From IMG/VR virus record IMGVR_UViG_3300008117_006295, positions 13,132 through 77,131 of that record: DNA of 64,000 bases; one strand, 5' to 3'. Positions 20,719 through 64,000 of the stretch are shown here, one piece after another. Below the pieces are notes generated by a model. That model saw only the letters and a list, made by a program, of their open reading frames with translations. It was not told the origin of the DNA and ran no database searches. Position 1 is the stretch's first letter; each line of letters starts with the position of its first letter. The position numbers and the translations under genes are program-made. The DNA is from a virus.

Positions 20719-20901
20719 ATGGCAACGGTAGAATTCAAAGACTTGGCAGAAGGAGCAGAGTTTATTTACAATAGTATACAGTATAAAAAAATTCCTGTTA
20801 TCAAAGTAAGTTGTTGTACATCCTTGAATGCAGAGAATATTACTGATTCTAATAAAAAAATTATGATTAGACCACTAGAAAAGGTTGAAGTTAATGAATA
20901 A
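20719..20901 (+). CDS. Small hypothetical protein
   Basis: AGGAG RBS; MATVEFKDLAEGAEFIYN...VSCC. Confidence 0.65.
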   Translation: MATVEFKDLAEGAEFIYNSIQYKKIPVIKVSCCTSLNAENITDSNKKIMIRPLEKVEVNE

Positions 20902-21583
20902 TAACAAAATTTGCGTTTTTGATTTCGAGACAGATGGATCAAATCCAGATTTCTGTAGTCCTGTACAAATAGCTGCTGTAATGATAGATCCGGTTAGTTT
21001 AGAAATTATTGATGGTTCAGAATTTAATGTAAACTTTAAACCAGAAGTGATAGAACAGAATGAAAATTATGAATATACAACTGATATCTTAGATTTTCAT
21101 GCTAAAGTTAGAGGATGTTCAAAAGCCGATATTCTAAAACAGTGGCAACAATATCCTAAACAAGAATATAGTTGGCAATTATTTATTAATTATTTACAGA
21201 ATTATCATACTAGAAGTAGTCGCAAAAGTCAATTTAGCGCCCCTATTGCCGCTGGATATAATATACATAGATTTGATCTTCGTATTATAGAAAGACTTAG
21301 CTCAAAATATAATAATCTAAATAAAGAAAATCGATCAGATATCTTTTATCCTCGTGATACATTAGATATAATGGGACTAATGTTTTATTGGTTTGAAGCA
21401 AGTAATGAACTCAATAGTTATTCTTTAGATACTGTGAGAGAATACTTTGGTATTAGTGGAGAGGGTGCTCATGATGCACTAAAAGACGTTAAAGATTGTG
21501 CGGAAATATTAACGAGATTTATGAAACTACATCGTAATCTTTCATCGAAAGTAAAATTTAAAAATTCATTTTTGGGAAAATAA
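20894..21583 (+). CDS. dnaQ: DEDDh 3'-5' exonuclease (Pol III epsilon-like)
   Basis: VFDFETDG, GYNIHRFD, AHDALKDV. Confidence 0.85.
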   Translation: MNNNKICVFDFETDGSNPDFCSPVQIAAVMIDPVSLEIIDGSEFNVNFKPEVIEQNENYEYTTDILDFHAKVRGCSKADILKQWQQYPKQEYSWQLFINYLQNYHTRSSRKSQFSAPIAAGYNIHRFDLRIIERLSSKYNNLNKENRSDIFYPRDTLDIMGLMFYWFEASNELNSYSLDTVREYFGISGEGAHDALKDVKDCAEILTRFMKLHRNLSSKVKFKNSFLGK

Positions 21584-34148: not shown

Positions 34149-34745
34149 ATGTTTAATTTTACTAATGCTAATTTACTATTAAATAGACCAAATCATACGA
34201 TAGATGCTAGTATAATTTCAAAAGAACAGATAAGATATATTTTAGCAGTGCTAGATAGTGTATTAAGTCAAAATATTCAAGGAGACGTTGTTGAATTTGG
34301 ATGTTATGTTGGCGAGTCATCAAAATATTTAAGAATGATGCTAGATCATCATTTATCTACAAAAAAATTATATGTTTATGATTCTTTTGATGGATTACCT
34401 CCATTAAGTAAATATGAAGAAAATACTGGGTGGCAACCAGGAACATTAAAAACATCAGAGTCCGTATTAGTAGAAAATTTTTATAACAATGGATTAAAAC
34501 CACCAATAATTACTAAGAATTGTTTTGGATTTTTGGATGGTGATTTTTATGATAGTATTTATGATAGTTTATCTAAAGCCTATCCTCTATTATCTGTTGG
34601 AGGATGCTTAATGTTTCATGATTATGAAAGAAATGATCTTCCAGGAGTAAAAGCAGCTATAATAGATTATATGAAAAATTATAATGATAATTCATATACT
34701 TTAATTAAAATTTATGAACAACTGGGATTATTAATTATTCTATAA
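34149..34745 (+). CDS. TylF/MycF-family O-methyltransferase
   Basis: GDVVEFGCYVG, YDSFDGLP, LDGDFYDS, GGCLMFHDY, PGVKAA. Confidence 0.88.
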   Translation: MFNFTNANLLLNRPNHTIDASIISKEQIRYILAVLDSVLSQNIQGDVVEFGCYVGESSKYLRMMLDHHLSTKKLYVYDSFDGLPPLSKYEENTGWQPGTLKTSESVLVENFYNNGLKPPIITKNCFGFLDGDFYDSIYDSLSKAYPLLSVGGCLMFHDYERNDLPGVKAAIIDYMKNYNDNSYTLIKIYEQLGLLIIL

Positions 34746-46590: not shown

Positions 46591-46602
46591 ATTATCTCCT
46601 TA

Positions 46603-48204
46603 TTATTCTACTAAATCACTAATTGTAGGATTTTGTATACCTATATTTGAACCTTCATCTGGACTAGTTCCAATACCATCTATATTAAATTCTGCAAATG
46701 CGCCTATTCTATTATCTTCTTGTCTAAAAAATGTTAGTGCAGGATCTGTGAGTCCTAGCACCCTAGTGCCTTCATCTACCCAGCCTCCAGCGTTTGTTGG
46801 AATATCGCTAAATATTAATTGTGAATAATTTTGTCCATCTGTTGATCGATTATAACATATTGTTTGATTAATATTAGCAATATATTGTTTACCATAGTAA
46901 GTATCTCCTAAATTTTGCACAAAGGCATGTATCTTCTTTAGATCTTCTGTTATATTATACTTATTAACATAAATATCTCTGCTTTTTGGATTATTAACAG
47001 AATCAGCAGCAGATAATGAAGCATCAAGAGCGGTAGCTGCATTTGCTAAAGTATTTAATGAATTGTCTAAGTTAGCAACACCCTGAGGATGCATCTCTCT
47101 TATTGCTGCGTTTAATGTGCCAGGAGTTGATGAATTAAAAGCGCGATCTTTCCAGAGTTCGTAAGATGACATGGCCGCTCTTATGTCCATTTCAGAAATT
47201 GTGTATGGCCCATTACTTGCAAAAGGCATATTTAAAGAACAGTTTAATGTATGTACTCTTTTTGCTATCCAAAAACCGACGCAGTTATCTCTGGCATAAG
47301 GCACTATTGGATTACCATTTAATTCATCTTCTCCAAAAAAGAAATCAAATTTATCAACATAAGTTAGATAGTGTTGTTGTTCTCCAAAAATTAAACTTCG
47401 TGTTTTATCATTTCTTATTTCTTGACCATAACTTAAATCAGTAGCTGATCCATTAAAAGCATTAATTATATAATTAAAACTTGTTGGTTGTTGATTAAGC
47501 GTTACAGTATTTATACTGATGACATTTTCATTATTCATTGTTATAAAAAAATCTAGTCCAAGAACATCGCAAACATCGCTGATAAGTTGTAGTATACTAA
47601 TACTAGGGCCTGGGACTCTATAGTATTCTGGAAGTCCTGTTGGAAAACTAGTAAAATTAATAGTAAATTCATAATTTGTTGGAGAATAAATAGTTGGATT
47701 CATTAACTTTAATCCATCTATAATTTTTTGGTATGGCATACCTCTTTCACTGGTAAAAGACGTACCGAAAACTGTACAGTCCTGATTTAAAACATTTCCT
47801 TCATAATAAGAATATATATTAAAATAATTTTTTGTTTGAATAGGTGGACCTAAATAAGAATCTACAATAACAACACAATTTTCAAGTAATGATCTTGGAT
47901 CAGAAATCTTAACATTATATACTTTACCAGAACTATTTTGAGTAACTGTCCAATTATTTAATATTCCACCAAAATCAAAAAAAGTAGACTCAGAAGCTAT
48001 TCGCGTTGTAAAATAAACAGGTTGGCCGATTGTATTTGCTCCCACTCTTGGTCCGAAATTCTGATTTGCTTCACAATCCTCAATAAGATCCAAACTTAAA
48101 GTACTTTCTTGCTGACTACCAAATCCTAAAGAACTATTAAAAGATAAAACTGTTGCTCCTAAAAAAACAATAGGTTCATTCAAAATTGGTGTTGGTAAAG
48201 TCAT
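46603..48204 (-). CDS. Tail/baseplate hub-like protein
   Basis: FLGATVLSFNSSLGF...STLSLDLIED...FGGIL...YNVKISDPR...ISILQLISDVCD; position downstream of the TMP; GGAG RBS. Confidence 0.6.
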   Translation of the reverse strand: MTLPTPILNEPIVFLGATVLSFNSSLGFGSQQESTLSLDLIEDCEANQNFGPRVGANTIGQPVYFTTRIASESTFFDFGGILNNWTVTQNSSGKVYNVKISDPRSLLENCVVIVDSYLGPPIQTKNYFNIYSYYEGNVLNQDCTVFGTSFTSERGMPYQKIIDGLKLMNPTIYSPTNYEFTINFTSFPTGLPEYYRVPGPSISILQLISDVCDVLGLDFFITMNNENVISINTVTLNQQPTSFNYIINAFNGSATDLSYGQEIRNDKTRSLIFGEQQHYLTYVDKFDFFFGEDELNGNPIVPYARDNCVGFWIAKRVHTLNCSLNMPFASNGPYTISEMDIRAAMSSYELWKDRAFNSSTPGTLNAAIREMHPQGVANLDNSLNTLANAATALDASLSAADSVNNPKSRDIYVNKYNITEDLKKIHAFVQNLGDTYYGKQYIANINQTICYNRSTDGQNYSQLIFSDIPTNAGGWVDEGTRVLGLTDPALTFFRQEDNRIGAFAEFNIDGIGTSPDEGSNIGIQNPTISDLVE

Positions 48205-48215
48205 TAATTAATCTC

Positions 48216-50132
48216 CTAAATAGAACATCCTGCATTACATATATATTCTAGACTGATAGTAAAGCTTCCATCTAATGGATTTTTAGTATATTGTTTTTGT
48301 GTTATAACAGTATTAGCGCTATTTGGTAGTGATATGGGAAAAGAACCAAGATCCTGACAAGACATACATTCTAATTGATTTAACCATTCAGCACCATCAG
48401 TAATATAATATTTACCAGTAGACGATAAGTCCACACCTCTTATTGTTATTGATACTGTTTTTGATGTTGTGGTATTGATATCCTGTATTACTGCGCATTG
48501 GCCATTATTTGGTATTGTAAAAGTAGCTATTATTGGAGTAGGATTATTTGTAGATATAGAAATTTCACTATATTTTCTTCCGCATGGATTATTTTTATTA
48601 GTATATTCAGCTGAATAACTTATTGAACCATCATAATTATGAGTAATATTAAATGATGATGGATGAGGTGGATTACTTCTAGGATCATCAGATGGAGCTG
48701 TTATTTCTAATGACGCTAAAGTAACCCCTAATAAATTTTTGAAATTAGTATTAAAATCTTTTTTACGGGCGTCTGCTGAACCATATTCATATGTTGCTGG
48801 AGTATATATTATATCTAATAATTTTTTAGCATTTTCATACTTATTAGTTAATGCATCACCAGCAGCATTATATAAGAAAAATGATCCTGTTTTAGGAAGT
48901 TCCAATGGTTTACTACTTCTAATTAATCCACCTTCAATTAAACCTTCTATATTTCCATCAATAGATATAGTATGATATTTTATTCCACTTTTATATTCTA
49001 TATTGTGTTTTTTTGAAACAGTATGTTTTGTTTCTGGTAAACTAAAATTATTAGATGTTTTATTTTTTATTAAAGCAGAATATGTTGCAGAAAAAGAGCC
49101 TTTTGATTCTGAAGCTGAACAAGTTATAGTTTCATTAAAAACCATAAAATCATCATCTCCTATCTCTTTTAATAGTCCTTCTGATCCTCCTATAGCATGA
49201 GCTGTTGTCAAATCTTTTAACATACTAGGATCGCACCCGGACGTGGCCGTTTGATTTTCTAATACTTGATTTAATAAGTTTTTAACCTGATAATATAATC
49301 TATACTGAACAAAATTTTTGGCCTGTTCCCAGGCAGGAATTAATTTACTAATACTATTTTCCTCATCTGATGCTGAACTATATGTATAAAAGTTTTTACC
49401 AGTAGCACTAATTTCATATTGTATTTCAAAAGTTGTATTATCTATATTTAGCAATTGATTTTCTTCAGTATTTTGCACTTTATTAAATGATGATTCTGAA
49501 TTAAAATTAATTGACCAATTATCATTAAAATTTTTAATTTTAAATTTATTAATATCTAATATATTAGAATAATCGCCTTTTGGGAAGGTACTATCAGATA
49601 AAAATATAGTTTCACTAAAAGATTCTTCTAAATTTGGATTAGATTGCCATGCGCCAAAGTTTCCATCAAACTTTGCGCCAATAAAATCAACACTATTAAA
49701 TTCTAATTCTGCAGTATATCTGGCATTATGATGCCAATTATTTTCACTATCATTAATATTAAAAGATCTTAATATTCCCCCTTTAGCTTTTAATATACTT
49801 TTGGTAGTACCTCCGCTAACATCTTTAACCACATGTAAAACGCTACCATTTTTACTCAGAATAGCTCTTAATTTATACATATGATCTATAACGGCACCTA
49901 TACCATTATTAGTATCGGTTGTAGTTTGAGTATTAGCATCCCAGTTTCTTAGATCCATTGCTGTTATAGTGCCATTTAATGTTATTATATATGTATATCC
50001 AATAATTGTATCATTAGAATAATTAAATTGTAAATCAATAGCGATAGTTGGAGATGGAATAACTCTACACTCTGCCAGATCTTTTTGTCCATAAAAAACT
50101 TTAATATCTGGTGCATATTTTATTGTAGGCAT
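48216..50132 (-). CDS. Tail protein, paralog of 50120..51913
   Basis: Shares SNDT/SIIGY.Y.I.LNG, KIK.FNDNW, LIPAWE.AK and G..EGG blocks with its neighbour. Confidence 0.75.
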   Translation of the reverse strand: MPTIKYAPDIKVFYGQKDLAECRVIPSPTIAIDLQFNYSNDTIIGYTYIITLNGTITAMDLRNWDANTQTTTDTNNGIGAVIDHMYKLRAILSKNGSVLHVVKDVSGGTTKSILKAKGGILRSFNINDSENNWHHNARYTAELEFNSVDFIGAKFDGNFGAWQSNPNLEESFSETIFLSDSTFPKGDYSNILDINKFKIKNFNDNWSINFNSESSFNKVQNTEENQLLNIDNTTFEIQYEISATGKNFYTYSSASDEENSISKLIPAWEQAKNFVQYRLYYQVKNLLNQVLENQTATSGCDPSMLKDLTTAHAIGGSEGLLKEIGDDDFMVFNETITCSASESKGSFSATYSALIKNKTSNNFSLPETKHTVSKKHNIEYKSGIKYHTISIDGNIEGLIEGGLIRSSKPLELPKTGSFFLYNAAGDALTNKYENAKKLLDIIYTPATYEYGSADARKKDFNTNFKNLLGVTLASLEITAPSDDPRSNPPHPSSFNITHNYDGSISYSAEYTNKNNPCGRKYSEISISTNNPTPIIATFTIPNNGQCAVIQDINTTTSKTVSITIRGVDLSSTGKYYITDGAEWLNQLECMSCQDLGSFPISLPNSANTVITQKQYTKNPLDGSFTISLEYICNAGCSI

Positions 50133-51913
50133 ATAAACTCCAGTTCTACATGAAATGATCCGTCTATCCTATTAACATTATATTGTTCTTTAGTTTTTAT
50201 ATATCCATCTTCTTTATTTATAGCAGTTAAAGTTGTTAATCCGACTATTCCTGTTAATGATGGGATAGAGTTACAAATTTGTATAGTATCAGTACCACAA
50301 ATTTTATTAGCTTGAGATGCTCCGTCTATTGATATGGAAATAGTGCCATTTTTTTTGGTATTTAATTTTTGTATAATTGGTCCAGCAGATCGTCCTGGAA
50401 CAACAAATTCTTGAACAACATCTGCAGGATAATTTTTAACTATAGAAATATTTGTATATCCAAATTCATTACTAATAGAATTTAAACTATCATAATTTGC
50501 ATTATAGTTAATAATTCCATTATTATAATCATGAGTTATTACAAAAGAAGTTGGTAGTGGAGACGTTGGTAAATTTTGATGAGCAGTTAATAATAAATTA
50601 GCATTAGTAATATTTAATGTTGTTTTTATACTATCTGAAAGATCGTCGTTAGCACTATGTTTAATATATGCTAAAAATGAATCGTATGCATTATCATATT
50701 TTGTAATATTATTATTTTTTTTTGTAATAAAAGCTCCACTAGCTGGCAATTCAAAATTATCATCTATTTTATCTATAAAACCACCTTCCACTAATCCTGT
50801 AACACTACCATTAACTGACAAACTAACATTCATTGAATCTCCATCAGAATATGAATTATCAACAGTAAAATTATGTAATGCGGCATTTTCTGCTAAACTT
50901 TTAGAACTATCAAATTTTTTGACAATAGCAGAATACTTTAAACTAAAAGATCCATCGGCTTCTGATGTATCACAATTAATAATTTCATTATATATTTTAT
51001 AATTAGTTGACATAGCATCATTTAATAATCCTTTTGATGCGACATCGTCTAATTTAAAAAGATCATTTGGATTTTGTCTACCAGTATTACCATTAAAATT
51101 ATCAGAACTAATAGGTAAAGCTCTTTTAGCATTAGTCTCGTCTAATAAGCCTTTAATTTGATTATATAATCTATCTTGACAAAACATTTTTGCCATTTCC
51201 CAAGCTGGTATCAATTTACTATTAACATAAAAATTTCTACCAATAGCAGATATCTCATAATTAACATTAAAATGATTATTACTAATAGTTGATAATTCTT
51301 TATATATTTCATCTCCAATAGAAAAAGTCCAATTATCATTAAATTCTTTGATTTTATATTTTTTAATATCTACTAAATTATCAGATGGATAGTTTTTATT
51401 ACTTTCGTTTATACCTGTTATTTTAGTATGAAAAAAAGAATCAGCACAAGAAATATCAGTATTATCTAAACATCCAATCAAATCTATCTCATTACACTCT
51501 ATTGTAATAGTATATGGGGCATAATTTACCCAATAATTATTAGAATTTTCAAAACTAATAGATTTTATTGTGCATCCTTTAGCGATCAGGATAGCGCTAT
51601 TGCTACGATCTGTAACATGAAGATCTCCTCCATTACAACTAAAAATATTCCTTATATGATCAATATGGCTAATAACATTTTCTATACCATAACCTAATGC
51701 GCTGTCTGGTTTTTCATTAAATCGTAAAGCATTTGCATAACCGTTTAAAATTACTGTATATGAATAACCTATAACAGAATCATTAGAATAGTATATATCA
51801 GAAGATATTGTTATCTTTGGAGCAGGAGCTAAACGAGAAGAATTTCCTATTGCTGAATTATCTGAAGATAAATAAAATACTTTAGTATTAGTTGACTGTA
51901 ATTCATTAGACAT
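50120..51913 (-). CDS. Tail protein (distal-tail position), paralog of 48216..50132
   Basis: Immediately downstream of the TMP; colinear motif sharing with the next gene. Confidence 0.75.
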   Translation of the reverse strand: MSNELQSTNTKVFYLSSDNSAIGNSSRLAPAPKITISSDIYYSNDSVIGYSYTVILNGYANALRFNEKPDSALGYGIENVISHIDHIRNIFSCNGGDLHVTDRSNSAILIAKGCTIKSISFENSNNYWVNYAPYTITIECNEIDLIGCLDNTDISCADSFFHTKITGINESNKNYPSDNLVDIKKYKIKEFNDNWTFSIGDEIYKELSTISNNHFNVNYEISAIGRNFYVNSKLIPAWEMAKMFCQDRLYNQIKGLLDETNAKRALPISSDNFNGNTGRQNPNDLFKLDDVASKGLLNDAMSTNYKIYNEIINCDTSEADGSFSLKYSAIVKKFDSSKSLAENAALHNFTVDNSYSDGDSMNVSLSVNGSVTGLVEGGFIDKIDDNFELPASGAFITKKNNNITKYDNAYDSFLAYIKHSANDDLSDSIKTTLNITNANLLLTAHQNLPTSPLPTSFVITHDYNNGIINYNANYDSLNSISNEFGYTNISIVKNYPADVVQEFVVPGRSAGPIIQKLNTKKNGTISISIDGASQANKICGTDTIQICNSIPSLTGIVGLTTLTAINKEDGYIKTKEQYNVNRIDGSFHVELEFICLQ

Positions 51914-51919
51914 AATTAA

Positions 51920-54900
51920 TTACTCTTCTGCTTGTGGAGAGGTCTTTTTACTAGCGGGTTTTCCTTTTGATCCTGAAGAATATCCTACATTTCCGCCTGT
52001 TTGATTATATAATTTATCCATAGCAGCATCTATTTGCTCAGTGATCAATCTTTGCATATTTCCTTCTATAGCTTGGAAAGCTGCTGCTCCACTAACTCTA
52101 ACGTCTACAACATGTTGACCTCCTCGTATTTCTATAGTAGATGGAATATTTACTGTTGATAAAACAGCAACATATTGACCAAATAATTCGATAGTTTTAC
52201 CAAAATTATCTAATGCAACTAATGTTCCATTATCTATTATTCCTTTAGAAGAATTTTGTGGATCATTATTAGTATTAGTTTTTTTGCTTCCCGGTTGTGT
52301 TGGAGACGGTGTTCCTAGCGGAGTTAATGCCATAGGCGGTGTTATTAGACTATTAGTATTTGTATACTCTCCTAGTCTTTGATCAGTTGAACCATAGCTA
52401 TTTGCGGTATTAATTCCTACAGATTCTGCGCCATAATTAGCTCCAGCAGATGGTAAAGACACAGGAACAGTTGGTCTAGGAGCAGGAACGGGAAGACTTT
52501 GTGAAGGCTGGACAGAATTTGGATATATGCTACTCTGTTGTACTCCGCCATAGGTAGGGGTTGTGGTATTTGGTATTACTGAGGTATTTCCTGTTAATTC
52601 TTTGGCGCTTTCATCAATTTCTCTATTTGTTTGAGCTTCAACCAATGCATTATTTTCTTGTGTCTGTAATGATGGGTCTTGTGGATAATTTTCAGCTGGT
52701 AATACATTTCCATTTTCGATAGTGGTTTCAGGCTTAGAGAATCCACTTGCTACTATATTAGCAATAATTGTAGCTAAATTAGTCACAGATTGTGTTAATA
52801 GTATAAAAGCATTATTGAGGTCATTAATTATTGTTAATTCAGAATTTTCAGCATCAATATTTTGTGATTCAACCGGATTCTCAGTTGACGCAACCATTTG
52901 AGCTTCAATAGCAGCATTTTCAGCTTGAGAAGTAGCATCTTGTTGTTCTGGTAAGACTTCTTTAGGTTTTTGATTAGCATATTCTTCTTTTCTTCTAGCC
53001 TGATTCTCTTCTGCCCTAGCTCTAGCTTCTTTGACAGCATCATTAAACGCTTTATCTTTTCTTGCTTCTTCTTCTGCAATACCTTGCCATCCTGGGGTTC
53101 CAGTTGTTACAGGTACCTTATCTGATCTTTCTATACTTTGAACTTGTTCTTCTCTATTTTTTATAAAAGCATCAATATCTCCACCAGTACTAAATCCAAG
53201 TTCTCTATCTAGATCTTCTGAAGTACCTCCTTCGCTTTTGATTCTTTTTGCTGTTTCTAACTGTAATTGTTTATCAGCAAGTTCTTTTGCATTTTTTCTA
53301 TCTATTGAATTTAATCCTTCATAATTAGTTCCAATATTTTCTTTTTTAGCTTCTTCTGTTAATCTAGATTCAGTAGCTGCATTTTGCTGTGCTGATTGTG
53401 CTGCTTGATTGCTAGCTTCCCATAGTTTACCTACTTCGACACCAATACCAATAATAGAATTTCCAATATTTAGTAAATTATTACCAACTTGAGCTAAATA
53501 AGATTGAGTCTGATTTTCGCTTAACATTGATTCTACCTCAGACATCTTACCTTCCCAATTATTATATAGTTCGAAGAAAGCCTTTAGAGTATCCGCAGCA
53601 GCGTATGCTCCATATACAGCAGCAGCTGCTGTGGCTGCTCCTGCGGCTGTTACACCGGCAGCAACGGTTCCGCCAGCAGCAGTTCCGCCAGCAGCAGCAG
53701 CGCCACCAGCAGCAGCAGCGCCACCAGCAGCAGCAGCGCCACCAGCAGCAGCGCCACCAGCAACAGCAGTTCCAGCAGCACCGATACCGAGTCCTCTTCC
53801 AACAATACTTAATAAACTATCAGTAAGAGCGGATACTCCTCTATCTAATAATTCATTGCCAACAGCAGCGCCAAGAGATGTTAATCCTGCTATAATAGTT
53901 GCCCACATAGCGTCACTAGCATTTTTAGCCTCAGCAACCTTGGCTTCTTGTGCTAAAACTTCTTGAGACTTATCTTCTACAACACCTGTCATCTGAGCTT
54001 CAGACGGTTTACTCTGCTCAACACCATCTTGGTTTTCTTTATCTCCAAACATTGACTGTCTAAAATTTTCTCTTTCTTTATCTACTTTTTGTTCAGCCTG
54101 CCTATATTCTTGAGAGCCCCTATATTCTTCTATTTCTGACCTTAATTCTTCGGGAGTTTTTCCAGTTTTGATTGCTGTATTATCAAAAGTTTCTTTTGCT
54201 CTTTCTTCTTTAGCCTTGGCATCTTTATATGCTTTACTTTTCTTAAAATCTTGATATTCTGGACTAGCTCTAAATTCATCAACATTTTTGAATACTCTGG
54301 TAGTAGCCGAACTTACGGTATTTTTAGCAGCATTTTCTTCTAATTTTAAAGTTTCTGCTTTGGCTTTTTCTTCATTAGAATAAGCAATATCAGCTGACTG
54401 AAATTGCGCCTCAGTCATGCCTAATTTTTCTGCTTCTTGTTTATCTAAAGCTTGTTTCTCTCTAACTGCCGCATCTAAATCACTAAATGCTGTTTTTTGT
54501 GGTTCGGCTTGTGGCGGTAAGCCAACATTATTTTGTTTTGGTAGATTAGAAAAACCAGCTAATATAGCATTTTCTAAAATTCCTGGTAAGTCCCTGGCTA
54601 AACTACTTAAGATTTCAGCCGAACCTCCCTCGCCGCTTTCGTATGCTTTTGCAGCAGCAACAGCAGCTTTGGATAACATTTCAGCAGCCTTGGCTTGTTT
54701 ATCTGTCGCTTCTTTATACATTTGTAACATAGCATCCTGAACAGGATCAACCCCTGTTTCTGCCAAATTTAATGCTTGTCCAAATGTCATTTTTTCCATT
54801 TTATTAGTTTTTGGATTACGATACAATGCCCCGGTTTGAGTATTTAGTAATTGTTTGCCTCCTGGCGTCGATTCTAACATACGTCTTGTTACTTGAGCCT

Positions 54901-57900
54901 GCATTTGATTCTTTAGAGATTCTGGCATCATACTGCTAATATCATTTAATCCAGCAAAAGCATTTTTACGGAATTCTAAACTATTCATTTCTTGAGGAGT
55001 AGCTTTTCCACTAATTACTTTGGTATATGCGGATAGTCCTTTATTTATTTTTTGTAATTCATCAGCATCACTAGTGAGTATTTTTTCCATAAAATTAACA
55101 GAGCCTTTAGCGGCCTGTTGTTGCTCTTGTAATCCTTTTAGCGCAGCAGCAGCGGCCGTCCCATCATTTGCTAATTCTTCAAGAGCTTTACGACTATTAT
55201 TAATAGCATTATTTTGATCAGCAACAACCTTTAACTGTTCCTGAACAGCAGCTGCTAGTTCTTGTCTTCTTTCTGGAGATTCTCCATCAGCAGCCTTAAG
55301 AGCATCTTGGCGTTTAGCTAGCTCTTTCTCTGCGGCAGATCTTTCCTCTATAGCACTTTGCATTCCATTAAAGATAGTTTCTGGGTCTGTAGATCCGCCT
55401 GCTACGACACCACTAGATAATCCTCTTATTCTAGCGTCTCCTGCGGCTGTTTTTTCTGCTATTGTTAAATTTCTACCTAAAGCTTCAGCTAATGCAATTT
55501 CTGCATTTAATCTAATGTCAGATGCTTTTAATGTCCAGTCCATTGATTCTTGCATAGCTTTAGCGTAATCGTTCATCAAATCTATGCTAACATCTAAAGC
55601 ATCATTATATTGTTTTTGAAATTCTTGACCTATTTTTAAAGCGGCTGCTGATTTTTTCTCTAATTCTGCAACAATATTGGTCTCTGACTTAAATTTTTCA
55701 AAAGAAACACCTTCTTTTCCTTGTGTTTCAGCAGTTAATGATCCTTTTAATTCTTCTCTAACAGAATCACTAAGGGTAGCACCAGCTAATCTAAAGGCTT
55801 CATCAAGTTGCTCCATAGCAGAATCAACATTTAATGATCCTGTTTGAGCTAAAATATTAGGTAATTGATCATTAATAATTTTAGCTGCTATTATTTGATT
55901 TTTTAGATCTTCTCCACCAACACCGCCTCCAGCAAGAGCAGCAGTTTGAGAAGCAACTTCTTTAACTTGATCTAAAGAATAGGCCTGAATATTTCCTAAT
56001 ACTTCTTCATTAGTTCTATCTACTTTACCAATTGTTGCTTGGCCAGAATATGCTGCTGCTGTAGCCGTAGCTTTTGTTTTCATTTTATCAATATTTTGAG
56101 CGAAAGCTTTTAGCATTGCTGATGCTCTATCATAAGTTCTAATTAAACTTTCTGTTTCTAAAGCAACTTTTTGATAAGCTCTTGATAAAAGTATTTGTCT
56201 ACGCTCATTTTCAGCTTCTACTGCTAATAATTGTTTAGCTGCTGCTATTGCTTCTTGTTGATTTTTTGACTTTTCTTCATCTGTACTTCCTAATTGACCA
56301 CTAATAGCTAGTCTTCTTCTTTCTCTTTGATCATCCGTAGAAGCATTTTCAAGATAAATTCTTCTAAAAATATCTTGTTCGCTCTTACCACTTTCTCTCA
56401 TCGTGGCAAAAGTTTGTGATTTTTTATATAATTGATTGGCTTTATCCTCACTTACTCTTTGAATTTCTTGATCTCTTGCTGTTACAGTAGTAGTATCTCC
56501 TCTATTTTTAGCTGCTTGTCTTTCAAGATCTAATTGATTTAATCTTGTGTTATACTGATTAGCAATATCAATATCTGATTGTATTTCTGATTCTTTTACT
56601 CTATTTAGTCTTTGTGAACCTAATTGTCTATACCTTCCAGTATTGATCGCCTCTTCTGCTAGATATGCTTTTCTGGCTTCTGCCTCTTGAGGCATGCCCA
56701 TAGCATTAGACACCATATCAGAATATGGCGCTAGTGCTCTCATCCATGATTTATTAGCTTCTGGTAAATCTATCATGCTGCGAGATCTAAGATCTTGCAT
56801 ACCAGATTCTTGTTGAGACAATATTCTTTGAGCAGAAGCTATGTTGGCGTCCGAAGCATTCTGTTCTAGTTTTTTAAATGCTTCTGCTGTTTTACCAGAT
56901 GCTTCTGATAGATTATCTAATTGTTTACGTAAAGAAGATTCATTAATAGACTTATAGTATTCACTAATTGCTGTTGACACTGCTGCAAAAGCTATAACGC
57001 CAGCTTGAATACTAGTAGAAAAATTTCTTAAAGTATTAGATATTCCGGATAAACGATTATTAAAGAATCCATCTAAAGTATCAGCAAAATTATTAATATT
57101 TTTACGAATATCTAGTTCACCAGCAACACCAGCTCCTTTACCAAATCCTTCGAATCCGGCCATTAAAGCTGTGGTTTGATCACTAAGTTGAACACCATAT
57201 GTTTTTAATGTCTCTCTTAAAGTAGCAGAAACTGTTGCTAATGTAATCAATGCTCTAGTAGTTGCTTTTAATGGACCTCCAAGATTATCTACAAATCTTT
57301 GAAAACTACTATCTAGATTATCACTAAGTCTTTGAGCTAAATCTTGTGAAGCTAAATCAGGATTTATTCCTCTTTCTTCAGCAACTCTTTTTAAAGCTTC
57401 TGTTTGAGCTTCTGATTCTGTTAAAGTTCTATTTAATATATCTCCTAATCCATTAACAGCTGCTATAGTATCTTCTACTCTATCTCCAGATCCCGCTCTT
57501 TCAAATCTGGACATTAATTGTTTAGCCATTAAATCAAAATCTAAAGTTTTATCAACACTAACCGATTTAAGTTTATTAGCTAAATCATTAACATAATTTT
57601 TTCTATCATCTGATGTTTTTAGTTTTTTAGCACCTACGGCGGCTTCTGTTAATTGTGCTCTTAATTGTGTTTGAGAATTTCTTAACTCTCGTGGAATACT
57701 TCTAGCAATATCCTGTGCAGCATATACTATTGATCTTCTAAATTCTTCTAATGCTTGTCCTGCTTTTTCGGCGTTAAATGCCATATATTCATCAACATCG
57801 CCACCGGTAGCAAATCTCTGAACTCCTCCAACAATACCACCCTTGTTATATCCTTGTAATTTATCAGCTTTATTTAATTTATGTAATTTACTATATCCTA

Positions 57901-60900
57901 TTTTTTGTGCAGCATTTTTATTAATTACAAATTCACCAGGAGTTAATAGTGCTGGAACAGTATCTTTTGACGATATTCCTGCTCTTCCTCCTGTGGCAAA
58001 TGTCTCAATATTAGTGGGTTTAAGTGGTGATGATCCAACATATTTTAATGCTAGTCCCAATGGATGTTTAAATAAACTACTTTCAAATTGTTGTACTAAA
58101 TCAGGATCTCCAGATTGTATTCTGGACATAAGTTGTCCAAGTAAAGCTCCTTCTCTAACATCACCCTCACTTCCGGCATAAATAGATTTTCTAGCTCCTC
58201 CTTGTACCTCAAACTCTGTTCCATCCTCAGATTTCAAAGTTTGAGATCCTTCTTGAACTCTTATGCCAACAGACATCATTCCAGCACTTGGATTTTTATC
58301 GAATTTACCCTTTAGACCAGTTTGATTTTCTGTAGCAGCATATTTGTCCTTAAGAACTTCATAATTATCATGTATCCATTGTACAACTAATCCTTTTTGT
58401 AATTCATAATCAAGATCAAAAGTTTTGGGATCTAATACTTCATCAAAACTTAAAACCATCGGCTTGCCTGATCGGTCACCACTAGCAAGCGTGAATCCGC
58501 TACCTCCATTAACTCTCATCTTAGCTTGTTGTTCAGCTTTACTTTTTTCTGTATATAGATAAAATCCTGCTCCTTGACCATATCCTGTGGCTATATTACT
58601 TAATGCTCCTTTTTCTTTGAAGCTCTTTAAAACATTATCATCGATTCCAGTATTACTTCCATGATATAGTTTGACAGCTCCTCCTTCAGCAAAAGCTGCT
58701 ATTTTTTCTGGATCAGGAATACCATATTGCTGTCTAAAATATCTTTGGAATTCTTCAACAGCTTTACCTCTACTACCAGAATCTATTGTTCTTTTTACTT
58801 CTGTAGGAATATCAGGATCGATACCGAATATTTTTGCGGCTTTTGCTCCTATTCCACTTGGAAAATCTATTGGTCTTGTTCTTTGAGCATCGTCTAAGAT
58901 TTTAGCATCTGCTGATCCAAAAATTTGTTCTAGTAAAGCACCCTCAATATTCCCTTGTCCAAGAGTTTCTCTTTCTTTTTGACTTAATTTCTTTGGTGAG
59001 ATTCCAAGAAGTTTTGCTGCTCCTCCTACTAATTTTTCTGTTTCTCCACTAAGATAATCAATAACACTCTTATATTGAGTTGGTAATCCTCTCTGAATTA
59101 TAGAAGCATTAATTGATCTTTCTTGACCAGATTGATCTGTACCAAGATTCCATATTTCTGGTCCTAATAATCCTGTATATCCTAGTGGATTAAGTCCAAC
59201 TAAACCTAGTTGTTGTGATGATAATACCGCATTAGCTGTTTCTTCTAAGGTTTTTGTTCTTTTATTGCCTTGTGATTCATTAAATTTATCTATTAAATAA
59301 TCTCTTGTTGCAGTATAATAAGCTAATTTATCTGGTTTAGTTTCTGGTCTAAATGCAGAATTCCAATATTTTAGCTTACCTCCTTCGGCAGTATCTCTTA
59401 CTGTTTTTCCTGCAAATGGACCAAAACTAGCATCTGTTGGTAATCTTTCGGTTCCAAATCGTTTTAAAATTTCTCTTCCTTCTGCTGGTAATATGCCAGA
59501 AGATTTTTTAACAGCTGTTTCTTTAGCAACTTTTTGCAATATTGCCTGTTGTAAGCCCGATTGAGCTTCTTGTGGAACTGATGTGCCAAATGCTCCTTGA
59601 ACAGCAGATTGAACTTGTTGTGCCATAATTTCTGAAGAAATATCAGAAGAAGCAGCAGAAACTTGTGCTCTTCTATTAGGGTCAACAGAATACATATCCG
59701 GATAACGTGATGATAATTCTGATATAATATTATACGCTCTGTAACTTAGTGCTCCTTCAGATAGTCTTGCTTTTTGTTTTCTTAAACTTTCAACTTGTTC
59801 TGCTATATCTGGATAATTTTCTTTTAGTTTTTTACTTAATACTTTGTATGGTCCACCAGGAGCATTAGCTAAAATTTCTTGTATTTGACTATCATATTTA
59901 GCTTCTTCAATATCAACAACTTTATTTATACTATCTAATAGCATAGGAACCATAGTACTACGATTTTGTAACTGTGGCCTATTACCCATAAGTATAGAAG
60001 CAATTTCTGGATGTAAATATTTAGATAATGTAGCATCATCACCAGCGAATAATGCTTCTCTTACTTTAGTAGCACTAATATCTTCTATACGTGGTATATC
60101 AGTAACTTTCATTCCTGCTCTGGTATATTTTCCTAGCGTTCTTTCATCTTTACCAGATGTTATTGCCATAGCGCCACTAGTTCTAGCAAATTTTCTTTTG
60201 TCCCCACTTCCTAGAACTTCAACATATTTTGGTATTTCTCCTGTTGGACTATCTCCTTGAGCTAACATGGCTCCAGGAAAATTAATACGAGCCATAAGTT
60301 GTCTAAGATCAGCATCAAAAATTCCATATCTAGCAGCATGTTCTGGTCCTTCACTGCTTTTCATTGGTAAATTACCAGCAGCATTTACTAAAATATCTTT
60401 CATAGAAGCATTGGGATTTTGTTCTATCATGCTAGCAAGTAGTGTTTCAACAGCACCAGCATGACCTCTTGTTGCAGGAGCAAAGCCGCCTGTATAGTAT
60501 CCACCAGCTTGTACTATATCTGATAGTTCACTTTGTTTTTTACGTCTTAGCTGATAACTTCCGGCTTTTCTTCCTAAAACTGTTGCTTTTTTACCTAATT
60601 CTTCTCTTAATGTAACTTCTTCTACTCCAAAATCTCTACTTGCACCTCTGGTACTACCGGGTTTACGTCCATACAATCCGGCGCCCGTTAAATCTCTAAC
60701 TTCTCGACCTTTCTGGACCATCTCTTGTTCTTCTTTGGTGTTAGAACTTAAAATATATGCTCTATCTACGTCTTTTAAATATGCATCTAATTTAGATTGA
60801 CTGGCTGTTGCAGTAAGGGCTATTACTTGATCGGCTTTCTTAATATCTTCTGGAGTAAGAATTGGAAATCTTGTTGTTTGTCTGAGTGTAGCATCGTCAT

Positions 60901-63900
60901 TAGCCCCAGCGCCCATTGCTAAACTACTTTTACCACTACCCGCTGCTCCTGCAATAGCAATAAATTTGCTTAATTCTTCTTTTTTACGCGCTTTTGCTGC
61001 TAACTCTCCAAGTTTAATACTATAATCACTAGTATCAGTAATACCTAGTGCTTCCATAGCTTTTTTAACTTTTTCAGTATTAGTAGGATCTCGTAATATA
61101 TCGGTATCTATGACACCAATATTTCTAGTAACTTTACCACCACGAGCATAAGTTTGTCGTTGAATACCAGCATTTCCTAATAGCTCATTTAGAGTTGAGT
61201 CTAAAATTCCTTGCATATTAGAATCTAATTTAGGAGCATTCTGAATAAGAGTAGTTAAAAATTCTTCTTTACCATAATCTTCTACTTTATCTATTGTTTC
61301 TTGTTTTTGTCCACCTTTTAATAATATCTCGTTAATTTTTGGATTAATTGGACGATATTCACGGGCATTTTTCTTAGCTCCAGACTCTACCCACATAGAG
61401 TATCCTTCTTTAGCTAGCTCTGGATCAGGACTTCTTCCTCCCGAACTAATAGTTCCTCGTCTTAGATCTTGTAAAACATTATCAAGTAAACCATTCTTAT
61501 AAGAGCGTCCATAAACAACATCCGCACTATTATAACTTCCGCCAAGAGCATCAAAAGCATCTGCTAAATCATCATTGTCTCCACCGAATAATTGAGATAC
61601 TCTTTCTTTATATTTAGTAAAACTATCTTCTGATTTGGCTCGTAAAGAATTAAATAATTGGTGTGTTAATTCATGATATAAAACATTTTTTGGTTGATTG
61701 CGCTCAAAAGCATTACTAGCCATTGAAACAAACCCGCGTCCTGTTGACGCTAGTACGCCCTTTTTTTGTTCCATAAGACCTTTACGAGCAACTGCTCTTT
61801 TATCCATTACATCAGATATTTTTTTACCAAGAGCGCTCTTTTCGTCCATAGCTTTATTAAAAGCCAAACTATCATAACTAAATGATCCATCCTCAAATGT
61901 TTCTATAGGAGTTTTTAATATTTTTTTGATTTCTTTAGTTTTTTCATCTAGTAATTTTTGATATCCAAATAAATCTTGCTCATCAGCTTGTGTGAATCCA
62001 AAGGCTTCCAATCCCTTATTATCATATCCTTGGGTACTAAAAGGATCTCTACTAAAAGTTCCACGATTACCAGAACGTTGTAATTCTCCACCAAAATCTA
62101 TCGTCTGAGGTAAAACTTTACTTAAATCGTCTCCTGGTAATCCTATAAACTTAGCAAAATCAGATAGATTACCCAATAATTCATTACGGCTAATTTTGGT
62201 ATTAAATAAACTTAAAAATCTTTTTCTATCAAATGGTTCGCTCTGAAATTTTTGAGATACTGCTTCTGGATCAATAGTTATTCTTTCATTACTTGGATAA
62301 GGATTAAAAGTATTATTTACTTTTTCATCATTTAACTTTTTTTCTATTTCTTTAACATAGGCGTTTGTTATACGTTTAGGAAATTTAGTTTCTCCTGTGC
62401 CGAATGGAGTTGACTCTGCTTTTCCACCAATAGCAAATTCAACAACTCCCTTTTCATTCCATTTTCTTCCGGTAGTTAGATCAGAATCCATTGAAAATCC
62501 TTGAGCCAAATAACGACCGAATCCTCCGCCTGCTTTTATTTTTTTTGTATCTTGAAAACTTTTAACTTCATCTTGTAGTTTATTTTTAGCTTCTTCTCCA
62601 GCTTTAGAGGCGGTAAGATTTTCTGTTACATAATAATTTGAAGGAATTTTGAATCCACTACCAGATTCTATTGGCGGTTTTTTATTTTTATTTTTAGATA
62701 AATCCATAAGTTTAACAGCTTTAGCCTCTGATACTCTGCTATCTTTATTGCCAGTTTCATATGTATCAAAATCTGAAATTCTAAATCTAGCAGTAAAAGG
62801 ATCGTCTGTTGGAGTAACCTGTGCTTCAAAAGTGTCTCCGTCAATAGCCTTTTGCTTACCGTCTATACTAGCTATTTTTGCCGCTCCTCCTTTAGCAAAT
62901 TTTTGTCTTTTGTTCGATCTTCCAGCTCTGATACTACCTCCTCCACCATACTTATTCATACTATGAAGATTATCTGCTCCGATAGTATCAACAGCTTTCT
63001 TTCTTATCACAAACTCTCCTGGCATAAGCATTGCTGGAACAGTATCTCTATTACCGCTGCCAGGAACCACGCCACCGCGAGCAAAGGCTTTAACTTTTCC
63101 TCCAGAAGCAAAAGTAGGCCCTCCAGAAGCTGCTATTCTTGAAGATAGATTATTTACTGCTGTTGTTAAATTATTTAATGCTGTAGTATTTAATTTTGTG
63201 GCTTCTGCAGCTCTTGATACTGCTTCGTTTCTTTCTCTATCTTTTGTTCCCGTGATAGTTGAAGCAACATTGGCTCCTGTTTCTCTCGCGCTACCTCTTC
63301 CCATAGTTCCAGCAAAACCACTAGCAAATTGTGTGGCTGCTTGAAAGCCTTTGATAGCTCCCATTATAGCTAACATTGGCAATAATGGTTTAAAAGCTCC
63401 GGCTAAATTAATTAATCCACTTGTTAAAGTTAAAACTATTGTTGCTAAACTTTGAAAAGCAGTATTTTTACCAATATCTCTAATTAATGCTAAAAACTGT
63501 TCTCTAACTTTTGCAATCTGATTTGCTAAAGAAAGTTGAGCTATTGCAGCATCTTGAGCTAAACTTCCTTGTCCTCTTTGAGCAACAGCGAGTGCCTTCT
63601 GTGCTTCGCTAAATTGTTGAATAAGAGGAATAACTTTACCAATTTGTCTAAATCCACCAAGTTCTTCTACGATTTTGGAGAATCTTATGTCTCTTGGATC
63701 TAGTTGATTTAACGCTTGACTTAAACGTCTGACTGCTTCATAAGGACCAACGAATTTTCCTTCAAGATCTGTTAATATAACTCCGAATTCTTTTAATTGA
63801 TTAATAGTACTAGCTCTTTGAAGACGTGTAAAAATAGTTCTTAAACCTGTAGCAATAGTTTCAGCACTTTCACGAGTAGTAGCACGTACGCTAGTAAATA

Positions 63901-64000
63901 CTGCAATAAATTCATTTAATGCATCTTTACCTTCGCTAACACCCTTACTAGCAGTAGCAAAAACACCACCGGTTCTTTGAATAGCAGCAATAATGTCAGC
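51920..64000 (-). CDS. Tail tape measure protein (>4,026 aa, 5' end outside window) with internal multi-enzyme cargo cassette
   Basis: The frame is open from 64000 (ADIIAAIQRTGG...TTRESAETIATGLRTIFTRLQR...LGGFRQIGKVIPLIQ, a TP901-type TMP core), in frame with the listed 63382 start. It has long Ala/Glu/Lys helical regions and enzyme motifs at 57800-63112. Confidence 0.9.
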   Translation of the reverse strand, partial: ADIIAAIQRTGGVFATASKGVSEGKDALNEFIAVFTSVRATTRESAETIATGLRTIFTRLQRASTINQLKEFGVILTDLEGKFVGPYEAVRRLSQALNQLDPRDIRFSKIVEELGGFRQIGKVIPLIQQFSEAQKALAVAQRGQGSLAQDAAIAQLSLANQIAKVREQFLALIRDIGKNTAFQSLATIVLTLTSGLINLAGAFKPLLPMLAIMGAIKGFQAATQFASGFAGTMGRGSARETGANVASTITGTKDRERNEAVSRAAEATKLNTTALNNLTTAVNNLSSRIAASGGPTFASGGKVKAFARGGVVPGSGNRDTVPAMLMPGEFVIRKKAVDTIGADNLHSMNKYGGGGSIRAGRSNKRQKFAKGGAAKIASIDGKQKAIDGDTFEAQVTPTDDPFTARFRISDFDTYETGNKDSRVSEAKAVKLMDLSKNKNKKPPIESGSGFKIPSNYYVTENLTASKAGEEAKNKLQDEVKSFQDTKKIKAGGGFGRYLAQGFSMDSDLTTGRKWNEKGVVEFAIGGKAESTPFGTGETKFPKRITNAYVKEIEKKLNDEKVNNTFNPYPSNERITIDPEAVSQKFQSEPFDRKRFLSLFNTKISRNELLGNLSDFAKFIGLPGDDLSKVLPQTIDFGGELQRSGNRGTFSRDPFSTQGYDNKGLEAFGFTQADEQDLFGYQKLLDEKTKEIKKILKTPIETFEDGSFSYDSLAFNKAMDEKSALGKKISDVMDKRAVARKGLMEQKKGVLASTGRGFVSMASNAFERNQPKNVLYHELTHQLFNSLRAKSEDSFTKYKERVSQLFGGDNDDLADAFDALGGSYNSADVVYGRSYKNGLLDNVLQDLRRGTISSGGRSPDPELAKEGYSMWVESGAKKNAREYRPINPKINEILLKGGQKQETIDKVEDYGKEEFLTTLIQNAPKLDSNMQGILDSTLNELLGNAGIQRQTYARGGKVTRNIGVIDTDILRDPTNTEKVKKAMEALGITDTSDYSIKLGELAAKARKKEELSKFIAIAGAAGSGKSSLAMGAGANDDATLRQTTRFPILTPEDIKKADQVIALTATASQSKLDAYLKDVDRAYILSSNTKEEQEMVQKGREVRDLTGAGLYGRKPGSTRGASRDFGVEEVTLREELGKKATVLGRKAGSYQLRRKKQSELSDIVQAGGYYTGGFAPATRGHAGAVETLLASMIEQNPNASMKDILVNAAGNLPMKSSEGPEHAARYGIFDADLRQLMARINFPGAMLAQGDSPTGEIPKYVEVLGSGDKRKFARTSGAMAITSGKDERTLGKYTRAGMKVTDIPRIEDISATKVREALFAGDDATLSKYLHPEIASILMGNRPQLQNRSTMVPMLLDSINKVVDIEEAKYDSQIQEILANAPGGPYKVLSKKLKENYPDIAEQVESLRKQKARLSEGALSYRAYNIISELSSRYPDMYSVDPNRRAQVSAASSDISSEIMAQQVQSAVQGAFGTSVPQEAQSGLQQAILQKVAKETAVKKSSGILPAEGREILKRFGTERLPTDASFGPFAGKTVRDTAEGGKLKYWNSAFRPETKPDKLAYYTATRDYLIDKFNESQGNKRTKTLEETANAVLSSQQLGLVGLNPLGYTGLLGPEIWNLGTDQSGQERSINASIIQRGLPTQYKSVIDYLSGETEKLVGGAAKLLGISPKKLSQKERETLGQGNIEGALLEQIFGSADAKILDDAQRTRPIDFPSGIGAKAAKIFGIDPDIPTEVKRTIDSGSRGKAVEEFQRYFRQQYGIPDPEKIAAFAEGGAVKLYHGSNTGIDDNVLKSFKEKGALSNIATGYGQGAGFYLYTEKSKAEQQAKMRVNGGSGFTLASGDRSGKPMVLSFDEVLDPKTFDLDYELQKGLVVQWIHDNYEVLKDKYAATENQTGLKGKFDKNPSAGMMSVGIRVQEGSQTLKSEDGTEFEVQGGARKSIYAGSEGDVREGALLGQLMSRIQSGDPDLVQQFESSLFKHPLGLALKYVGSSPLKPTNIETFATGGRAGISSKDTVPALLTPGEFVINKNAAQKIGYSKLHKLNKADKLQGYNKGGIVGGVQRFATGGDVDEYMAFNAEKAGQALEEFRRSIVYAAQDIARSIPRELRNSQTQLRAQLTEAAVGAKKLKTSDDRKNYVNDLANKLKSVSVDKTLDFDLMAKQLMSRFERAGSGDRVEDTIAAVNGLGDILNRTLTESEAQTEALKRVAEERGINPDLASQDLAQRLSDNLDSSFQRFVDNLGGPLKATTRALITLATVSATLRETLKTYGVQLSDQTTALMAGFEGFGKGAGVAGELDIRKNINNFADTLDGFFNNRLSGISNTLRNFSTSIQAGVIAFAAVSTAISEYYKSINESSLRKQLDNLSEASGKTAEAFKKLEQNASDANIASAQRILSQQESGMQDLRSRSMIDLPEANKSWMRALAPYSDMVSNAMGMPQEAEARKAYLAEEAINTGRYRQLGSQRLNRVKESEIQSDIDIANQYNTRLNQLDLERQAAKNRGDTTTVTARDQEIQRVSEDKANQLYKKSQTFATMRESGKSEQDIFRRIYLENASTDDQRERRRLAISGQLGSTDEEKSKNQQEAIAAAKQLLAVEAENERRQILLSRAYQKVALETESLIRTYDRASAMLKAFAQNIDKMKTKATATAAAYSGQATIGKVDRTNEEVLGNIQAYSLDQVKEVASQTAALAGGGVGGEDLKNQIIAAKIINDQLPNILAQTGSLNVDSAMEQLDEAFRLAGATLSDSVREELKGSLTAETQGKEGVSFEKFKSETNIVAELEKKSAAALKIGQEFQKQYNDALDVSIDLMNDYAKAMQESMDWTLKASDIRLNAEIALAEALGRNLTIAEKTAAGDARIRGLSSGVVAGGSTDPETIFNGMQSAIEERSAAEKELAKRQDALKAADGESPERRQELAAAVQEQLKVVADQNNAINNSRKALEELANDGTAAAAALKGLQEQQQAAKGSVNFMEKILTSDADELQKINKGLSAYTKVISGKATPQEMNSLEFRKNAFAGLNDISSMMPESLKNQMQAQVTRRMLESTPGGKQLLNTQTGALYRNPKTNKMEKMTFGQALNLAETGVDPVQDAMLQMYKEATDKQAKAAEMLSKAAVAAAKAYESGEGGSAEILSSLARDLPGILENAILAGFSNLPKQNNVGLPPQAEPQKTAFSDLDAAVREKQALDKQEAEKLGMTEAQFQSADIAYSNEEKAKAETLKLEENAAKNTVSSATTRVFKNVDEFRASPEYQDFKKSKAYKDAKAKEERAKETFDNTAIKTGKTPEELRSEIEEYRGSQEYRQAEQKVDKERENFRQSMFGDKENQDGVEQSKPSEAQMTGVVEDKSQEVLAQEAKVAEAKNASDAMWATIIAGLTSLGAAVGNELLDRGVSALTDSLLSIVGRGLGIGAAGTAVAGGAAAGGAAAAGGAAAAGGAAAAGGTAAGGTVAAGVTAAGAATAAAAVYGAYAAADTLKAFFELYNNWEGKMSEVESMLSENQTQSYLAQVGNNLLNIGNSIIGIGVEVGKLWEASNQAAQSAQQNAATESRLTEEAKKENIGTNYEGLNSIDRKNAKELADKQLQLETAKRIKSEGGTSEDLDRELGFSTGGDIDAFIKNREEQVQSIERSDKVPVTTGTPGWQGIAEEEARKDKAFNDAVKEARARAEENQARRKEEYANQKPKEVLPEQQDATSQAENAAIEAQMVASTENPVESQNIDAENSELTIINDLNNAFILLTQSVTNLATIIANIVASGFSKPETTIENGNVLPAENYPQDPSLQTQENNALVEAQTNREIDESAKELTGNTSVIPNTTTPTYGGVQQSSIYPNSVQPSQSLPVPAPRPTVPVSLPSAGANYGAESVGINTANSYGSTDQRLGEYTNTNSLITPPMALTPLGTPSPTQPGSKKTNTNNDPQNSSKGIIDNGTLVALDNFGKTIELFGQYVAVLSTVNIPSTIEIRGGQHVVDVRVSGAAAFQAIEGNMQRLITEQIDAAMDKLYNQTGGNVGYSSGSKGKPASKKTSPQAEE
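53688..53756 (-). repeat. 18-bp tandem repeat encoding (GGAAAA)n in the TMP
   Basis: CCAGCAGCAGCAGCGCCA x3 plus one 15-bp variant on the + strand. Confidence 0.9.
57800..63112 (-). other. [F/Y]AxGG-delimited enzymatic cargo array inside the TMP
   Basis: In-frame motifs FASGG 63098-63112, FARGG 63071-63085, FAKGG 62885-62899, FAIGG 62423-62437, YARGG 61136-61150, FAEGG 58679-58693, FATGG 57986-58000, YNKGG 57836-57850 and FATGG 57800-57814; DTVPA..PGEFVI modules at 63005-63046 and 57923-57964. Confidence 0.85.

Follow-up and report, generated by a model that had tools for sequence, protein, structure and literature searches.

Tape measure proteins (TMPs) leave the phage tail before the DNA, and those of mycobacteriophages embed small cell-wall hydrolase motifs. 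TMP-borne peptidoglycan hydrolases are also cited in PMC12617516. In the Thermus phage P23-45, the TMP gp96, a protein of 5,002 amino acids (aa), has a virion RNA polymerase in its N-terminal part and shows that a functional enzyme can be carried by a TMP (Chaban et al. 2024, PMC10770324). Two other TMPs are known to be cleaved: as the tail matures, lambda gpH loses about 14 kDa from its glycine-rich region at a site not yet mapped and by a protease not yet identified (PMC12617516), and T5 pb2 is cut after R1127, by which an enzymatic domain, the peptidase pb2C, is freed (PMC10038345). Polyvalent proteins, which are packaged in the head or transferred by conjugation, have been suggested to be injected alongside the DNA (Iyer et al. 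2017, PMC5512222). In addition, a systematic survey of phage protein mosaicism could confirm no genuine case of domain shuffling in TMPs (PMC10684548). This article deals with a TMP gene at one end of a stretch of 64,000 nucleotides of virus DNA (positions 13,132 to 77,131 of IMG/VR record IMGVR_UViG_3300008117_006295; this whole stretch is called the window hereafter). Its source is a large uncultured aquatic tailed phage, and its product contains an array of modules punctuated by a repeated motif, [F/Y]AxGG (the joint); on balance, this TMP probably doubles as an enzyme carrier, whose modules travel with the ejected protein.

P23-45 gp96 resembles the present TMP in its giant size and in having a working, N-proximal enzyme that is believed to enter the host together with the TMP, before the genome does, but it has one fixed enzyme and neither an array nor a repeated joint motif, nor has exchange of cassettes been reported for it; the two are likened by description. 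Lambda gpH contains, at residues 728-796, a homologue of the module that brackets the present array, and in T5 pb2 a cut separates an enzymatic domain from the ruler. These two, however, are TMPs cleaved near the C-terminus, and cultured-phage TMPs hold the module essentially once per record, whereas here it occurs twice and brackets a cargo array of 1,630 aa far from the C-terminus. Mycobacteriophage TMPs share the same bracketing module and have small enzymatic motifs within the TMP, but these are one or two short wall-directed motifs and not a combinatorial array of cytoplasm-type enzymes. The likeness to polyvalent proteins lies in the union of ADP-ribosyltransferase (ART), metallopeptidase-like, nuclease and NTPase domains in one rapidly shuffled polypeptide, and the present TMP also unites several unrelated enzymatic or effector domains in one polypeptide with variable architectures. 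The polyvalent signature families (ART-PolyVal, MPTase-PolyVal and others) were not matched at family thresholds in the TMP segments, and the paper on polyvalent proteins contains 0 mentions of tape measure proteins and describes no joint motif (PMC5512222). Full-text literature searches gave no description of such TMP enzyme arrays, the described cases being single enzyme fusions (P23-45, T5). An enzyme fused to a TMP and an injected polyvalent protein are known; the joint-punctuated combinatorial array is a new form of them.

The gene is read on the minus strand from position 64000 to a stop codon at 51920-51922 as a 5'-open frame of 4,026 aa, and the end of the window coincides with the end of the 77,131-base virus record, the completeness of which is 56% according to CheckV; the genes upstream of the TMP gene thus fall outside the record. 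An identical full-length TMP from another assembly (P0002, 4,288 aa) carries PF10145, precomputed on it and on most relatives, and the part in the window matches phrog_4211, a TMP family, with an E value of 2e-12. These matches confirm the product as a phage tail TMP of the TP901/lambda type.

The motif [FY]AxGG occurs at TMP residues 297, 306, 368, 522, 951, 1770, 2001 and 2063 (window 63112 down to 57800), accompanied by the variants YGGGG (351) and YNKGG (2051), and the lengths between motifs are 149, 424, 814 and 226 aa. A first-pass annotation, made from the letters alone, had described eight motifs, both variants and four segments of these lengths, all of which agree with the translation; it had also seen no motif in the remaining TMP, where only a degenerate FSTGG at residue 3603 is found. 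The number is far from that expected by chance, that is, shuffled versions of the TMP contain 0.2 motifs on average and 3 at maximum against 8 observed, and in 204 related sequences 1,104 motifs are observed against 45 expected from composition. Furthermore, [FYW]AxGG is absent from the other open reading frames (ORFs) of the window (19,638 aa scanned). The extended consensus of 934 copies is GGx[VI][QR][KR][FY]AxGGx[VA], in which the Ala and the Gly-Gly of [FY]A.GG are invariant by definition of the motif and the conservation of the flanks is a separate observation. At 262 joints Gly is encoded with background codon usage, and so it is the peptide that is selected, not the DNA; a recombination signal at the DNA level was rejected on the same ground. 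In both AF2 models confidence drops at the joints, which separate confidently modelled domains, with values of the predicted local distance difference test (pLDDT) <50 at FAIGG and FAEGG, and the joints are predicted to be disordered.

Comparison with relatives confirms that the motifs are true module borders. When P0002 is compared by BLAST with 119 relatives, the segment ends accumulate at the motif positions, which, together with the low-confidence joints of the AF2 models, bears out the earlier view that the internal motifs fall at domain boundaries; two further borders lie within the 814-aa segment. A word-indexed search with residues 297-2067 gave 385 proteins of 2.2-7 thousand aa, nearly all with PF10145, which cover 100, 84, 71, 47, 25 or 17% of the query. 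In IMG/VR, a single-protein scan with module C1 found nothing and an alignment of the conserved N-terminal core was needed, which gave 286 relatives, the longest of their contigs measuring 244 kb; when single cargo modules served as queries, contigs up to 381 kb were reached. When 167 non-redundant TMPs were cut at the motif and the pieces were clustered, 284 clusters and 159 different architectures were obtained on a constant plan of N-terminal core, bracketing module, variable cassettes, bracketing module and ruler. The cassette is therefore not an invariant one, and different cargo occupies the same slots. Against one relative (L002), for example, identity is about 90% through cargo B, falls to about 35% exactly from YARGG (residue 951) and is about 90% again near residue 1480, while another (L005) is without everything between joints 368 and 951. 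Recombination also uses borders without the motif, namely those between C1 and C2 and between C2 and C3. As judged from these alignments, modules are added, dropped and replaced at the joints during evolution and related phages swap cargo there, so that the present family is a clear case of TMP domain shuffling, as against none confirmed in the survey mentioned above (PMC10684548).

In the same slots of relatives (e.g. L031:14144-15196, P0067, P0104, P0080), an ADPrib_exo_Tox-like module (PF03496), a second HExxH type (PHEAFHxIQ) and EF-hand domains were also seen. Most of the 284 segment clusters are without a Pfam match, none of twenty further cargo modules of relatives reached a Pfam threshold, and whole-protein and per-segment Pfam and PHROG searches gave only sub-threshold matches for the array.

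The bracketing modules, which are 65-70 aa long, occupy residues 297-367 and 2001-2067. The above-mentioned part of lambda gpH (FATGG...HRGEFVF...YATGG) is matched with an E value of 1.2e-9 by a profile built from 151 copies, and by this profile match the modules are homologous to the glycine-rich region of gpH. The joint peptide also stands on either side of the core of the bracketing module, so that joints and modules alternate throughout the region (joint-module-joint-module). The copy number in TMP relatives is 1-8, two being present here. Among cultured phages, the module is found at 604 places in 603 records, mostly in TMPs of Mycobacterium (356 records), Gordonia and Escherichia phages. 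It also occurs in T4-like cyanophages, as in a 766-aa "transmembrane protein" of Synechococcus phage S-SM2 (L144, GU071095, 3002-5302), which is probably a tape measure, as it is encoded between the baseplate hub gp26 and a transglycosylase-domain protein. As for T5 (L143, NC_005859), residues 1120-1150 of pb2, in which the cut after R1127 lies directly before AEGGMMYPG...GEHGTEVV, resemble by eye a degenerate joint followed by a module core. Membership of T5 pb2 in the bracketing-module family was rejected, for the module profile does not match it, and the by-eye parallel at R1127/AEGG is for this reason a lead only.

Three domain identities are supported in the array, and the catalytic motifs of cargo modules A, C1 and D are invariant across relatives only 32-40% identical overall. 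Cargo A is accepted as an SNase-like nuclease: the catalytic and Ca-binding set DGDT, R, D..E and R is invariant in 5 aligned copies and in a 34-member consensus, the module matches the endonuclease family phrog_452 (E 5e-4), and the hidden Markov model (HMM) of the 34 members matches a region of P0027, DIVDGDT...FRFAGIDAPE, with an E value of 7e-14, P0027 itself carrying PF00565. The thermonuclease motifs that the first-pass annotation had read in this segment are thus conserved and linked by profile to PF00565-bearing relatives. Cargo C1, of 491 aa, is accepted on its sequence signatures as a P-loop NTPase followed by a HIGH-motif nucleotidyltransferase of the PPAT/NMNAT/cytidylyltransferase-like kind; a P-loop kinase and a HIGH nucleotidyltransferase had been named before. 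The Walker A motif GxxGxGK[ST] is invariant, and in the HxGH and ISxTxxR signatures G221, P225, G229, H230, S359, T361 and R364 are invariant in the 16 aligned sequences, the shared forms being GGFAPxTxGH and ISGTxxR. The C1 profile matches in PDB, weakly, MJ0951 (3gmi, E 1e-4) and an NMNAT (9x6f, E 0.04), and an Atlas lead (score 0.82-0.89) points to viral Zeta_toxin/AAA_33 + CTP_transf_like fusions, that is, a P-loop kinase plus a cytidylyltransferase-like domain; the tentative assignment to the kinase type comes from sub-threshold Pfam matches and this lead. A role of C1 in NAD or nucleotide chemistry would be speculation.

Cargo D is supported as an ART-fold module by a fold search with its AF2 model, in agreement with the ART-like segment proposed earlier, and its H11, Y47 and E97, the putative catalytic H-Y-E residues, are invariant in 9 sequences. 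The Pfam matches to ART-PolyVal (E 0.27, 12.4 bits against a cut-off of 31.2) and DUF3990 (E 0.09) are far below threshold, and no MPTase model was matched in the per-segment Pfam search. PDB sequence-profile searches with cargo modules A, B and D gave nothing useful. A protein of 239 aa on five contigs, the longest of 17 kb (P0126), is a possible free-standing homologue of the ART module, with 35% identity over 97% of the query.

Cargo B is a different case. The motif YHE[LM]THQ is invariant in 21 sequences and the model is confident, but no significant match was found in PDB or BFVD, and neither Foldseek on these two nor VIA wide showed a peptidase fold. Of the earlier proposal of an HExxH peptidase, the motif has stood, whereas so far neither fold nor sequence links the module to any peptidase, and peptidase, of the zincin class, is a guess at the motif level. 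Fold search on predicted models, as had been suggested, accordingly gave an ART fold for cargo D and no match for cargo B. Cargo B is also predicted to be mostly helical yet globular, so that the insert is not simply "non-helical", as it had been called; the globular character holds. An exhaustive profile search with cargo B gave 43 proteins among 1.84 billion representatives, almost all giant and TMP-like, the few short ones being probably fragments, and a near-length search gave three proteins on short contigs, which are probably TMP fragments, too. Since the cargo is mostly invisible to Pfam and at least cargo B is exclusive to these TMPs, the family is a source of enzyme folds so far unknown, which probably act in host takeover or counter-defence.

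The two small modules are less clear. In the AF2 model that covers C2, pLDDT is <50 at residues 1-63 and 75-90 afterwards, and a recombination breakpoint lies within the linker before it; C2 has no Pfam or Atlas family match, and an Atlas search on C2 and C3 together gave no usable match. C3 is also found as the C-terminal ~100 aa of inter-joint segments in other clusters (c9, c19, c28), always just before a joint. It is a possible PD-(D/E)xK nuclease, a class assignment resting on three conserved residues only (E250, D271 and K295), the acidic residue two before K not being conserved; the fold search of the model containing C3 was filled by the ART domain. The positions of all features are collected in Table 1.

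Table 1. Features of the tape measure protein gene, with positions in the window
Feature	Position	Strand	Remarks
Tape measure protein gene	51920..64000	(-)	5' end truncated by record end; PF10145 on identical full-length P0002, phrog_4211
Conserved N-proximal core (residues 1-296 of window part)	63113..64000	(-)	55-76% identity in IMG/VR relatives; 286 relatives
Bracketing module M1, FASGG-KVKA-FARGG ... DTVPAMLMPGEFVIRKKAVDTIGADNLHSMNKYGGGG	62900..63112	(-)	Many TMP PHROGs near their C-termini; lambda gpH profile match
Cargo A, SNase-like (thermonuclease) module, 154 aa, begins at joint FAKGG	62438..62899	(-)	Invariant DGDT, FR..(F)D.YE, GR.LA
Cargo B, 429-aa globular module with YHE[LM]THQ, begins at joint FAIGG	61151..62437	(-)	AF2 pLDDT 89.5, predicted template modelling score (pTM) 0.84
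Cargo C1, P-loop NTPase (GAAGSGKS) + HIGH-motif nucleotidyltransferase (GGFAPATRGH, ISATKVR), begins at joint YARGG	59678..61150	(-)	Invariant columns, PDB profile matches
Disordered linker (~65 aa) + cargo C2, helix/beta-sheet module without family	58991..59677	(-)	AF2
Cargo C3, 99-aa module	58694..58990	(-)	35 non-redundant loci; E250, D271, K295 (model numbering) >90% conserved
Cargo D, ART-fold module, begins at joint FAEGG	58001..58693	(-)	AF2 model fold search
Bracketing module M2, FATGG ... DTVPALLTPGEFVINKNAAQKIGYSKLHKLNK...YNKGG...FATGG	57800..58000	(-)	HMM score 93.6; present once in the TMPs of 603 cultured-phage records; matches C-terminal parts of many TMP PHROGs
Remaining "ruler" part	51923..57799	(-)	Includes Ala/Gly-rich hydrophobic stretch

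In the explanation favored here, the two copies of the lambda-type TMP module enclose an array of independently folding domains, namely an SNase-like nuclease, a TMP-specific HExxH domain, a P-loop NTPase/HIGH nucleotidyltransferase, two small modules and an ART fold. The joint would be in the first place a hinge or tether, which allows each domain to be threaded and to refold separately, and it may also be cut. Because TMPs leave the tail first, the cargo would reach the host at the very start of infection, ahead of the DNA, and there the NAD- or NTP-using enzymes and the nuclease may serve host takeover or counter-defence. Several points weigh against this explanation. The phage is uncultured, and the presence of the cargo in the virion and its ejection are presumed. 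Moreover, the lumen of the tail tube has no room for three to six copies of the folded domains, at 1,770 aa per copy, so the cargo would have to be stored unfolded or elsewhere, and under any reading the storage of the array in the particle is unexplained. The tail type, too, is not readable, since the ten genes upstream of the TMP in a relative (L008) gave no family match and the five large ORFs directly downstream of it in the window (38801-51913, minus strand; 597, 638, 533, 716 and 1,882 aa) gave no PHROG or Pfam match. Finally, a sequence as strict as that of the joint, [FY]A.GG with conserved flanks, is not needed by a passive hinge, which points to recognition by a partner, possibly a protease.

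The array may, as a tentative alternative, be a true polyprotein, the joints of which are cut at or next to Gly-Gly by a phage or host protease in tail maturation or after ejection to free the enzymes. A repeated motif at domain borders is present, the joints are disordered and at the same time strictly conserved as peptide, as expected of a recognition site, the bracketing module is homologous to the part of gpH in which gpH is converted to gpH*, and in T5 pb2 the cut that frees the enzymatic domain falls directly before AEGG. On the other hand, the T5 parallel is one by eye, some recombining borders have no motif, and cleavage at the joints would be a deduction from the motif. A search of the 77-kb record, itself 56% complete, revealed no JAB, NlpC/P60 (lambda gpK-like) or further Gly-Gly protease. 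Of the 116 full-length relatives only 41 have HExxH modules, for which reason a universal protease built into the TMP is unlikely and was rejected. It is conceivable, with the same reserve, that the [FY]AxGG joint is the recognition element of a conserved TMP-processing step shared with lambda gpH, and that this element has been multiplied here to yield a polyprotein that releases customisable free enzymes (nuclease, NAD-using transferase, nucleotidyltransferase) into the host before phage gene expression.

It is unlikely that the modules are directed to the envelope, acting in the periplasm or at the cell surface to open the way for the DNA in the manner of T5 pb2C or the wall-hydrolase motifs of mycobacteriophages. 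The known TMP-borne enzymes except the P23-45 polymerase do act on the cell wall, and the HExxH domain and the nuclease could act outside the cytoplasm. However, the ADP-ribosyltransferase and the P-loop/nucleotidyltransferase need NAD+ and nucleoside triphosphates (NTPs), which are cytoplasmic, and Pfam searches of the whole TMP and its segments revealed no lysozyme, transglycosylase or amidase family. Still less credit, close to none, is given to the idea that the modules are decayed passengers adding only length or bulk to the ruler: almost all of them are missed by Pfam at its thresholds, as might suit such padding, but the invariance of their catalytic motifs at so low an overall identity and the confident AF2 models speak against it.

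If the cargo is delivered, as the enzyme-carrier explanation supposes, protein in the tail lumen would be a second route for pre-made effectors besides head-packaged ejection proteins, and this route would be programmable, with hundreds of natural combinations already present on one scaffold. In addition, a widespread but unstudied TMP module is linked to the unexplained cleavage of lambda gpH, a link that is directly testable in lambda.

Within the ruler, the part corresponding to residues 2900-3270 of P0002 is common to 80-87 of the 119 relatives. Residues 3403-3462 (window 53615-53794, minus strand) form a run of 60 residues with AAGG-type repeats and no amino acid other than A, G, V, T, I and L; this run is probably the membrane-inserting hydrophobic part of the TMP. 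The guanine + cytosine (G + C) content of the window is about 30%, and the TMP gene (window 52001-64000) has 34-39% against 25-34% over the rest. Among six ORFs checked downstream of the TMP, only that at 34735-38784 (1,349 aa) matches baseplate-wedge or fibre-like PHROGs. Elsewhere the window encodes ribonucleotide reductase, a DnaB-like helicase, primase, a UvsX-like recombinase, DNA polymerase and glycosyltransferases. The DNA polymerase lies in two plus-strand ORFs (window 18843-20717 and 21583-23193), which match phrog_405 positions 42-608 and 622-1069, with a 232-aa ORF (20885-21583) between them, an arrangement that may reflect a gene split by the insertion of a mobile element or homing endonuclease.

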